A program made the position numbers and the translations under genes. DNA of 64,000 nt, from NCBI RefSeq assembly GCF_054482595.1, contig NZ_CM137008.1; one strand, given 5' to 3'. Positions 39,276 through 43,572 of the stretch are shown here, one piece after another. The first letter of the stretch is position 1; the number at the start of each line of letters is the position of its first letter. The notes beneath the pieces are model-generated. The model saw nothing but the letters and a program-made list of their open reading frames with translations, ran no database searches and had not been told where the DNA came from.

Positions 39276-39740
39276 ATGCGTTTCTGCCTTATTTTGATCA
39301 CAGCACTGTTTCTGGCCGGGTGTAGCCACCATAAAGCACCGCCGCCAAATGCCAGACTTTCTGATTCGATTACCGTTATTGCCGGTTTGAACGACCAGCT
39401 ACAAAGCTGGCATGGCACGCCGTATCGTTATGGTGGCATGACGCGGCGCGGTGTGGACTGTTCGGGATTTGTGGTTGTGACGATGCGCGATCGTTTCGAT
39501 TTACAGCTGCCCCGAGAAACCAAAGAACAAGCCTCTATCGGCACGCAAATTGATAAAGACGAGTTGCTGCCTGGTGACCTGGTCTTTTTCAAAACGGGTT
39601 CCGGACAAAATGGTTTGCATGTAGGTATTTACGATACCAACAACCAATTTATCCACGCCTCTACCAGCAAGGGAGTGATGCGTTCCTCACTTGATAATGT
39701 CTATTGGCAGAAAAATTTCTGGCAGGCGAGACGAATCTAG
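39276..39740 (+). CDS. nlpC: NlpC/P60-family lipoprotein
   Basis: 154-aa ORF with lipobox LAGC. Confidence 0.92.
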   Translation: MRFCLILITALFLAGCSHHKAPPPNARLSDSITVIAGLNDQLQSWHGTPYRYGGMTRRGVDCSGFVVVTMRDRFDLQLPRETKEQASIGTQIDKDELLPGDLVFFKTGSGQNGLHVGIYDTNNQFIHASTSKGVMRSSLDNVYWQKNFWQARRI

Positions 39741-39986
39741 TATGTCGAAAATTGGACGGCGATGATACATCGCCGTCCATTTACTCCAGAATACAGTAGT
39801 ATTTTGCAGACAAAAATTCCGTAAATGGATTATTCGTTTATAATCAGGATAATCTAAAAAAAGGACCCCTGAAAAAGTGGTTAACATGGAACAAATGAAA
39901 GTTACTCCTTATGTAATTGTTATGTCTTATGGCCTCATCCCTTTTAGCCGGATACTGAAAAACATCCTTCGAGAGGGACGGTTACC

Positions 39987-40700
39987 ATGAAGATTTTTTT
40001 GGAGAATCTTTATCATTCTGATTGCTATTTCCTGCCGATAAGAGATAACCAGCAAGACCTTGTCGGCGTTGAGTTAATTACCCATTTCTCCAGTGAAGAT
40101 GGCACGGTGCGTATCCCGACGAGTCGGGTTATAGCGCAACTTACCGCGGAGCAACATTGGCAATTATTTTCAGAGCAGTTGGAATTACTAAAATCATGCC
40201 AACATTTTTTTATTCAACATAAACTCTTTGCCTGGCTTAATTTAACGCCACAAGTGGCTACATTATTATTAGACAGGGATAATTACGCGGGCGAACTATT
40301 AAAATATCCGTTTATTGAACTGTTGATTAATGAGAATTACCCGCATCTCAATGAAGGAAAAGATAATCGCGATCTTTTGTCCTTATCGCAAATGTATCCC
40401 CTTGTGTTAGGTAATTTGGGAGCAGGCAATAGCACAATGAAAGCGGTTTTTGATGGTCTTTTCACCCGCGTCATGCTGGATAAAAGTTTTATTCAGCAAC
40501 AAATCACGCATCGCTCCTTCGAACCGTTTATTCGTGCGATCCAGGCGCAAATTTCCCCTTGTTGCAATTGCATCATCGCGGGGGGCATTGATACGACAGA
40601 AATATTGGCACAGATTACCCCCTTCGATTTCCATGCTCTCCAGGGATGCCTGTGGCCTGCCGTTCCTATAAATCAGATAACGACGTTGGTTCAGCGATAA
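39987..40700 (+). CDS. ydiV: EAL-like anti-FlhDC factor YdiV
   Basis: 237-aa ORF. Confidence 0.88.
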   Translation: MKIFLENLYHSDCYFLPIRDNQQDLVGVELITHFSSEDGTVRIPTSRVIAQLTAEQHWQLFSEQLELLKSCQHFFIQHKLFAWLNLTPQVATLLLDRDNYAGELLKYPFIELLINENYPHLNEGKDNRDLLSLSQMYPLVLGNLGAGNSTMKAVFDGLFTRVMLDKSFIQQQITHRSFEPFIRAIQAQISPCCNCIIAGGIDTTEILAQITPFDFHALQGCLWPAVPINQITTLVQR

Positions 40701-40723
40701 CCCTCCTGTTTGCTGGTGTTTAA

Positions 40724-42199
<1,476 letters not shown>

Positions 42200-42202
42200 A
42201 GG

Positions 42203-42394
42203 CTACTTGGTCAACAGCAGCTTGCCAGCCTGAGTTTTACGGAGCAGATATTCTTGCCCGTCATGATCGATAATCAGTTTGCCATCCGGACCTAACAGTG
42301 TCTGGCTGGAAATTCGCCGAATAGGCTGCGGGGAAGCGGTCTTGTGATTGGCATCCGTTTCAGGCGTGAGTTTTCTGCTATCCGTATAACGCAT
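42203..42394 (-). CDS. ydiE: HemP-like small protein YdiE
   Basis: ORF 42203..42421; start at [12 protein letters not shown] by recall. Confidence 0.8.
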
Positions 42395-42402
42395 AAAAAT
42401 TA

Positions 42403-42440
42403 ATAATAATTGATATAACAATGATTCTTATTATCAATAT
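42403..42440 (-). promoter_or_regulatory. candidate Fur box upstream of ydiE
   Basis: aataataattgatataacaatgattcttattatcaat contains aatgattcttattatc, close to Fur consensus aatgataatcattatc. Confidence 0.5.
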
Positions 42441-42525
42441 TATGGCTGACCAGAGCAAGCAGTAATGTGTTGAGAAGACAACAAGTTGCGCAGAAATGCC
42501 CATCCCATCAGGAATGGGCACGCAT

Positions 42526-43572
42526 TCAGAAGCGGGTATCTACCGCAGAGGCGAGTTTTTCGACCAGGCGTTCGGTATCTTCCCAGCCCAGACACGGGTC
42601 GGTAATGGATTGACCGTAAGTGAGCGGCTGACCGCCGACGATTTTTTGCGTTCCTTCGCGCAGGAAACTTTCCGCCATAATTCCAGCAATCGCCGTAGAG
42701 CCATTGCGGATTTGCTGACAAATATCCTCACAAACTTCTAACTGGCGACGGTGCTGCTTCTGGCAGTTACCGTGGCTGAAATCCACCACCAGATGTTCAG
42801 GTAAATCAAACTCGTGCAGCGTATCGCAGGCTGCGGCGATATCATCGGCATGATAATTCGGTTTTTTGCCGCCACGCATAATAATGTGGCCATACGGGTT
42901 GCCGCTGGTCTGATAGATGGTCATCTGACCATTTTTGTCTGGCGAGAGGAACATATGGCTGGCGCGGGCTGCGCGGATAGCATCCACAGCAATCCGCGTA
43001 TTGCCATCGGTACCATTTTTAAAACCTACCGGACAGGAGAGTGCCGAAGCCATTTCACGGTGGATCTGACTTTCGGTAGTACGTGCGCCAATCGCGCCCC
43101 AACTGATTAAATCAGCAATAAACTGACCGGTCACCATATCGAGGAACTCAGTCGCGGTTGGGACGCCCAGCTCATTTACCTGTAAAAGTAATTTGCGCGC
43201 CAGCTCCAGACCGTGATTTACCCGATAGCTGCCGTTTAAATCTGGATCGGAGATTAGTCCTTTCCAGCCGACAACAGTTCGTGGTTTTTCAAAATAGGTG
43301 CGCATTACGATTTCCAGCCGTGACTGGTACTGGTTGCGCAGCGACTGCAGACGGGTGGCGTACTCCATTGCAGCGGTGAGATCGTGGATCGAGCAGGGGC
43401 CAATAATGACCAACAGTCGCTTATCTTCACCATTGAGTATTTTTTCAATTCTGCGGCGGGAGTCGGTGACATGGGTGGCGACGCCAGGCGTTACGGGATA
43501 CCGTAGCGCGAGTTCGGCGGGCGTTACCAGGCTCTCAATACGCGCAGTACGGAGTTCGTCAGTTCTGTTCAT
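42526..43572 (-). CDS. aroH: DAHP synthase, Trp-sensitive
   Basis: ORF 42526..43695; start at MNRTDELRTARIESLV gives the 348-aa AroH. Confidence 0.93.
   Translation of the reverse strand: MNRTDELRTARIESLVTPAELALRYPVTPGVATHVTDSRRRIEKILNGEDKRLLVIIGPCSIHDLTAAMEYATRLQSLRNQYQSRLEIVMRTYFEKPRTVVGWKGLISDPDLNGSYRVNHGLELARKLLLQVNELGVPTATEFLDMVTGQFIADLISWGAIGARTTESQIHREMASALSCPVGFKNGTDGNTRIAVDAIRAARASHMFLSPDKNGQMTIYQTSGNPYGHIIMRGGKKPNYHADDIAAACDTLHEFDLPEHLVVDFSHGNCQKQHRRQLEVCEDICQQIRNGSTAIAGIMAESFLREGTQKIVGGQPLTYGQSITDPCLGWEDTERLVEKLASAVDTRF

Follow-up and report, generated by a model that had tools for sequence, protein, structure and literature searches.

An array of overlapping Fur sites in front of ydiE (hemP) in Escherichia coli

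Introduction

The closest described system is the Fur cluster in front of ydiE (b1705) of Escherichia coli K-12, which is the same element as the one treated here. It has been published in PMC2189734 and PMC10164565, and is attributed there or in PMC5428311 to McHugh 2003, Panina 2001, and Seo et al. With a model built on 24 sites and a genome cut-off of 10 bits, Chen et al. (2007, PMC2189734) reported 10 walkers over 53 bp at ydiE, a strongest site of 20.1 bits, and a centre at 1787602 (position -35 relative to the start of the gene); Fur regulation of the gene is credited in that paper to McHugh et al. 2003, and in its Table 4 ydiE stands without the F/G (footprint/gel shift) flag. Gao et al. 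(2023, PMC10164565) assigned Fur ChIP-exo peaks to ydiE at 1787605-1787617 in MG1655 (flagged as also present in the Seo et al. data set) and at 1791295-1791307 in W3110; ydiE-assigned intergenic peaks were also given for BL21, 042, Sakai, and CFT073, so that six of nine strains carry one. The same authors place ydiE in the core Fur regulon common to the nine strains, and in the Fur-1 and Fur-2 iModulons. The main text of Beauchene et al. (2015, PMC4676285) makes no mention of the gene.

Related arrangements are known from other enterobacteria. Salmonella enterica ydiE (STM1346) is, like the present gene, a small HemP-family gene behind a Fur box and repressed by Fur: in S. Typhimurium it has a putative Fur site and is 7.4-fold up in Δfur (PMC3212961), and in S. 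Enteritidis it is induced approximately 4-fold in iron-restricting egg-white medium (PMC5428311, where Panina 2001 and Bjarnason 2003 are cited for ydiE). Yersinia enterocolitica hemP likewise belongs to the HemP family and has a Fur box in its promoter; it heads a hemin-uptake operon (PMC3212961), whereas at the present locus ydiE stands alone, flanked by aroH and selO. The comparison with Yersinia is drawn from the literature only, as Yersinia and other distant HemP genes were not retrieved by our protein scan. Finally, the footprinted operators of entC, fhuF, cirA, sodA, fepA-fes, and fecI resemble the ydiE element in being AT-rich arrays in which 19-mers overlap at a 6-nt phase around aATGATAATcATTATCAtt; they lie over a sigma-70 promoter, as the ydiE array would over its putative one. 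The ydiE sites are further from the consensus, at 15.8 and 14.3 bits against 16-26 bits for the footprinted operators under the same matrix.

The DNA analyzed here is a stretch of 64,000 nucleotides of contig NZ_CM137008.1 (RefSeq assembly GCF_054482595.1), hereafter the window. It is a segment of the E. coli chromosome; many sequenced strains share positions 42150-42600 at 100% identity, and 5422 of the 5426 complete E. coli genomes contain a match. Between the putative -35 hexamer and the ydiE ATG the window does not differ from MG1655 or W3110. Three differences from K-12 were found, all outside the operator: two in the aroH hairpin (one in the loop, one in the closing stem pair) and one at 42461. 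We conclude, with a probability of roughly 95%, that the AT-rich segment 42392-42438 serves the promoter of ydiE (hemP) as its Fur operator. The motif, its clustering, and its conservation were computed in this work; occupancy, iron dependence, and derepression are taken from the cited papers.

Experimental Procedures

A palindromic weight matrix was built from 15 published E. coli Fur sites, ydiE being left out, namely those of the clusters at fhuA, fepA-fes, fepD-entS, entC, fiu, sufA, cir, mntH, exbB, bfd, ryhB, sodA, fecA, fecI, and fhuF. Training coordinates were those of the strongest site per cluster in Table 4 of Chen et al. 2007 (PMC2189734), converted to NC_000913.3; the resulting 19-mers align on aATGATAATcATTATCAtt, which confirms the conversion. 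As a cluster statistic, positive scores were summed over a 35-nt span of start positions.

Orthologous loci were collected by a YdiE protein scan with one genome per species, which returned 13 loci from Escherichia, Citrobacter, and Salmonella enterica subsp. arizonae and diarizonae. Twelve of these were usable, the remaining one being a 417-bp contaminant contig, and the conservation analysis thus covers three genera only. The site of C. sedlakii was taken from the alignment, because the automatic start call lay too far upstream.

The discarded contig (NZ_POTZ01001146.1, 417 bp) is labelled Streptomyces sp. NTH33; its YdiE is 100% identical to that of E. coli at a coverage of 0.8 and is almost certainly E. 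coli contamination.

Results

The ydiE gene and its neighbours

42203-42394, minus strand: ydiE/hemP coding sequence, 63 amino acids, the regulated gene (open reading frame, Pfam, RefSeq annotation, structure match).
42526-43572, minus strand: aroH, located upstream of ydiE and read from its strand; given as context and outside the Fur unit (annotation, open reading frame).

The ATG of ydiE occupies 42394-42392 on the minus strand, and the gene order in the window is selO/ydiU (40763-42199, plus strand), ydiE/hemP (minus), aroH (minus), ppsR, and ppsA. The HemP-like character that the sequence-only reading had given to ydiE is borne out by the Pfam hemP profile (PF10636), which matches YdiE well above the curated threshold (E=2e-15; 56.8 bits, cut-off 25) and spans residues 27-63 over all 37 profile positions, and by RefSeq, which in strains of 100% identity labels the gene 'hemin uptake protein HemP'. 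Two solved structures match the protein, 4YNX ('YdiE', E. coli, crystal, E=3.6e-38) and 2LOJ. No heme transporter is found within 20 kb on either side, the neighbours being aroH and selO; at ydiE neither a hemin-uptake role nor linkage to a hemin-uptake operon was found. The description of YdiE as a HemP-like iron-regulated small protein is therefore accurate, with 'hemin uptake' as a family label only.

An array of overlapping Fur sites

42420-42438, no strand assigned: Fur site with its centre at 42429, -35 relative to the ATG, that holds the 7-1-7 inverted repeat TGATAATAAGAATCA; 14.3 bits, strongest site in Chen et al. 2007.
42414-42432, no strand assigned: second strong Fur site, centred at 42423 (-29); 15.8 bits, with the ChIP-exo peak at 42414-42426.
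42399-42420, no strand assigned: weaker, auxiliary Fur sites spanning the 5' leader ATTAATAATAATTGATATAACA, the block ATTATTATTAA included; 8.5 and 8.7 bits, and conservation.
42392-42438, no strand assigned: full Fur cluster of seven overlapping positive 19-mers, from the -10 region to the start codon (matrix and cluster nulls).

The 37-mer in which a Fur box had been noticed occurs once in the window, at 42402-42438, 8-44 nt 5' of the ydiE ATG. It had been assigned to 42403-42440, which names the right place with coordinates 1-2 nt off. It does lie directly upstream of ydiE, since that gene is read from the minus strand and its ATG is at 42394-42392; as quoted, the string reads along the plus strand, antisense to ydiE.

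Its resemblance to the Fur consensus holds, as the best match to the 19-bp consensus GATAATGATAATCATTATC on either strand of the 64 kb is at 42417-42435 (minus strand, 15/19). A second match, 42423-42441 (14/19), overlaps it with a shift of 6 nt, and TGATAATAAGAATCA (42422-42436, minus strand) agrees with the 7-1-7 motif TGATAATnATTATCA at 12 of the 14 specified positions. A search for the 19-bp consensus with up to three mismatches returned no 19-mer in the window, because the ydiE site has four. Mismatch counting is a poor model of Fur sites, and the weight matrix was therefore used.

Under the matrix the two strongest sites, 15.8 and 14.3 bits, lie 6 nt apart in the classic hexamer-phased overlap. 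Their scores are marginally below the lowest of the leave-one-out scores of the training sites (16.0-25.8 bits). Five weaker sites follow within 42392-42435 (8.7, 8.5, 4.5, 3.8, and 0.5 bits), the best two being 42402-42420 (8.7 bits) and 42399-42417 (8.5 bits). The seven positive sites are centred at 42401, 42405, 42408, 42411, 42423, 42426, and 42429, and phasing of overlapping sites by 6 (or 3) nt is thus present at ydiE. What had been read as a single Fur box is accordingly a Fur site, but one that belongs to an array of overlapping sites.

Two other 19-mers of the window rival the ydiE sites taken singly, at 39999-40017 (16.8 bits) and 57317-57335 (15.8 bits). As the single-site score fails to single out ydiE, the cluster statistic was used instead. 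The ydiE array sums to 56.1, the top of the window, and the next-best locus reaches 20.3; none of 300 first-order Markov windows attained this value (maximum 34.8). The matrix scan that had been suggested as a check on the box thus turned out in its favour.

The array might still be a chance resemblance to Fur sites, arising from promoter and leader DNA of 14% GC and lacking Fur function. The empty strict consensus search (up to three mismatches) fits such an explanation, as does the occurrence of a single site of approximately 16 bits at 57317-57335 in ydiP, where no ChIP-exo peak is reported. When the 14%-GC core was shuffled 5000 times, however, no shuffle reached the cluster score, so that AT-richness alone does not explain the signal, and only 0.9% of the shuffles reached even the single-site score of 15.8 bits. 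The core is moreover nearly invariant over three genera while equally AT-rich flanks drift, and the chance explanation is effectively refuted by direct evidence, in the form of the published ChIP-exo peaks and Δfur expression; we regard it as extremely improbable.

The match at 57317-57335, TTTAAAAATGCTTATCGTT, lies inside the ydiP coding sequence and is isolated, with no cluster around it. No ChIP-exo peak is reported between sufA and ydiE in MG1655 (PMC10164565), an interval that covers it. It is probably a chance match, and a single site of approximately 16 bits is insufficient evidence by itself.

Putative promoter, leader, and aroH hairpin

42430-42435, minus strand: GATAAT, putative -10 hexamer for ydiE, lying within the Fur core; unchanged in each of the 13 sequences, 17-nt spacing.
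42453-42458, minus strand: putative -35 hexamer TTGCTC; CTTG invariant, mean identity of the hexamer 0.83 against 0.64 for the spacer.
42498-42519, minus strand: hairpin GCCCATTCC-TGAT-GGGATGGGC directly after the aroH stop codon; fold -21.6 kcal/mol, z=-3.9.

A conserved CTTGCn (TTGCnn) stands exactly 17 nt 5' of GATAAT in every aligned sequence. From this arrangement we infer that TTGCTC and GATAAT are the -35 and -10 hexamers of the ydiE promoter, which would place the transcription start near 42422-42424 and the two strongest Fur sites over the -10 hexamer, the start, and the early leader. Operator and promoter would overlap, as GATAAT falls within the Fur core, the promoter itself being putative and its -35 hexamer weak (3/6). 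A generic promoter scan called no minus-strand promoter at ydiE, because the -35 hexamer matches at only three of six positions. The leader (42395-42413, minus strand), ATTATTATTAATTTTT-ATG, consists of A and T only and also provides weak Fur sites; no recognisable Shine-Dalgarno sequence was found in it.

The hairpin behind aroH is probably the aroH terminator, which would insulate ydiE from aroH transcription. Its sequence is also present in other Escherichia loci, in C. sedlakii, and in C. amalonaticus. The terminator scan called none at this hairpin, because the U tract is weak (only AUUUCUG follows). A terminator at this position agrees with the different responses of aroH and ydiE to fur deletion.

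It could be supposed that the sites serve another target, by acting on aroH read-through as a roadblock or an aid to termination, or by controlling a plus-strand antisense promoter into aroH. aroH is indeed immediately upstream on the same strand, and a plus-strand promoter-like match, ATAACA-17-TATTAT (42415-42443), overlaps the box. Such matches are, however, at chance level (one found, 0.9 expected), a stable hairpin lies between aroH and the box, and aroH barely changes in Δfur (log2 fold change -0.48 in MG1655, +0.54 in W3110; PMC10164565) whereas ydiE rises 7-fold to more than 200-fold. A function directed at aroH is thus hardly credible, and ydiE is retained as the target.

An RNA element was considered as well; an Rfam scan of 39500-43000 gave no credible RNA family, and a riboswitch or small-RNA reading of the region was dropped on that account.

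Conservation across three genera

42418-42437, minus strand: invariant operator core TTGATAATAAGAATCATTGT (= TTGATAATAAnAATCATTGT); 19-20 of 20 positions identical in 12 loci.

In the alignment, 19 of the 20 columns of the core TTGATAATAAnAATCATTGT are invariant, and each of the other genomes is identical to it at 19-20 of 20 positions. By comparison, the 66 nt 5' of the -35 hexamer are identical at only 15-35 positions (about 23-53%) in Citrobacter and Salmonella. A second block, ATTATTATTAA (42400-42410), has a mean column identity of 0.95 across genera and coincides with the weaker downstream sites; mean identity is 0.71 between the two conserved blocks and 0.64 in the spacer upstream. The operator core is thus a sharp phylogenetic footprint across the three genera.

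Strong Fur sites were found 5' of a plausible start codon in all 12 usable loci. Site scores in Citrobacter and Salmonella go up to 21.1 bits, the core there reading TTGATAATAATAATCATTGT; the arizonae and diarizonae loci of Salmonella in this way share the core of ydiE in the window. The distance from the Fur core to the first in-frame ATG varies among genera from 23 to 48 nt, and some annotated ydiE start codons in Citrobacter and Salmonella may therefore be wrong.

Conservation of this kind also bears on the possibility that Fur binds here while the block is conserved mainly as a promoter and iron control is largely indirect, for example through RyhB, Rcs, or H-NS. Because the invariant core holds the putative -10 hexamer GATAAT, constraint on the promoter and constraint on the operator are inseparable by conservation alone. 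Conservation nevertheless extends approximately 12 nt past the -10 hexamer over the palindrome half-site AATCATTGT, and returns over 42400-42410; a -10 hexamer by itself needs neither. This possibility, weighed together with the expression data given below, is very unlikely.

Occupancy and iron-dependent expression

The published binding data coincide with the array. With the ATG at 42394, the site of Chen et al. at -35 falls on window position 42429, the exact centre of TGATAATAAGAATCA. The W3110 gene start at 1791327 puts the ChIP-exo peak at -20 to -32, that is at 42414-42426 in the window and inside the core. In both MG1655 and W3110 the binding condition at ydiE is given as 'R', iron-replete only (PMC10164565). 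Expression of ydiE in Δfur relative to wild type is raised in eight of nine strains (log2 fold change +2.2 to +8.1; MG1655 +2.87, W3110 +8.1, that is approximately 7-fold to more than 200-fold) and lowered in BL21 (-1.1; PMC10164565). The two kinds of data that the sequence-only reading had named as a check, Fur ChIP and iron-dependent expression, are therefore both on record, in the form of ChIP-exo peaks, derepression in Δfur, and induction under iron restriction. Its description of ydiE as iron-regulated is upheld by the rise of the gene in Δfur in E. coli and Salmonella and by its induction in iron-restricting egg white.

Largely indirect control would be in keeping with the listing of Rcs control of ydiE in a Salmonella table (PMC3212961) and with the fall of ydiE in BL21 Δfur despite a Fur peak. 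Against it stand the derepression in eight of nine strains together with occupancy that is restricted to the iron-replete condition, and direct repression by Fur remains the preferred explanation. That ydiE is a Fur operator locus follows from the coincidence at one place of the matrix and cluster test, the cross-genus footprint, the published cluster, and the ChIP-exo peak.

BL21 is the sole strain of the nine in which ydiE goes down in Δfur, and does so with a Fur ChIP-exo peak in place. Compared with the window and with K-12, BL21(DE3) carries a single SNP, T to A at 42439 (CCATAATATTG to CCATAAAATTG), just outside the core. This SNP offers no obvious explanation of the inverse response.

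A second Fur-like site at ydiV

The best single matrix match in the window (16.8 bits), TTGGAGAATCTTTATCATT, is at 39999-40017, in codons 5-10 of ydiV (open reading frame 39987-40700, plus strand). A Fur ChIP-exo peak with the label ydiU/ydiV intragenic, approximately 2400 nt away from that of ydiE, has been reported for W3110, BL21, 042, Sakai, and CFT073 (PMC10164565); it maps to about 40013-40026 and overlaps this match. In MG1655 the peak near ydiV, approximately 80-110 nt 5' of the ydiV ATG, is bound under either iron condition (PMC10164565). YdiV is reported to inactivate Fur via SlyD, and ydiV to be induced 3-23-fold by iron chelation (PMC7515728); the gene is not derepressed in Δfur (log2 fold change -0.36 and -0.61; PMC10164565). 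The ydiV site could belong to a Fur-YdiV feedback or could be a non-regulatory binding site.

Because Fur is inactivated by YdiV acting with SlyD, and iron starvation induces ydiV, the ydiE operator and the ydiV site, which flank selO, might together supply the cis-acting DNA for a direct feedback between Fur and YdiV, with the ydiE array being more than an on/off operator. We consider this unlikely.

Discussion

For the Fur operator of ydiE, classical Fur repression is the mode of action that the data favour most. When iron is sufficient, Fe2+-Fur dimers, in a number presumed from the sites, bind the overlapping hexamer-phased array, with the two strongest sites centred 29 and 35 nt 5' of the ATG and the weaker ones reaching the start codon. 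Fur bound there would cover GATAAT as the putative -10 hexamer, along with the predicted start of transcription and the short leader; RNA polymerase would presumably be excluded by occlusion, and ydiE kept silent. When iron is scarce, Fur would lose its metal and leave the DNA, upon which the promoter would fire and the 63-residue HemP-family protein be made.

The operator is real and functional, and it is already known, having been predicted, scored, and mapped in vivo before. The site shows that a true regulatory element can be recovered from raw sequence, and it carries little weight as a discovery. As a member of the core regulon of nine strains of E. coli, ydiE offers a reliable readout of Fur activity.
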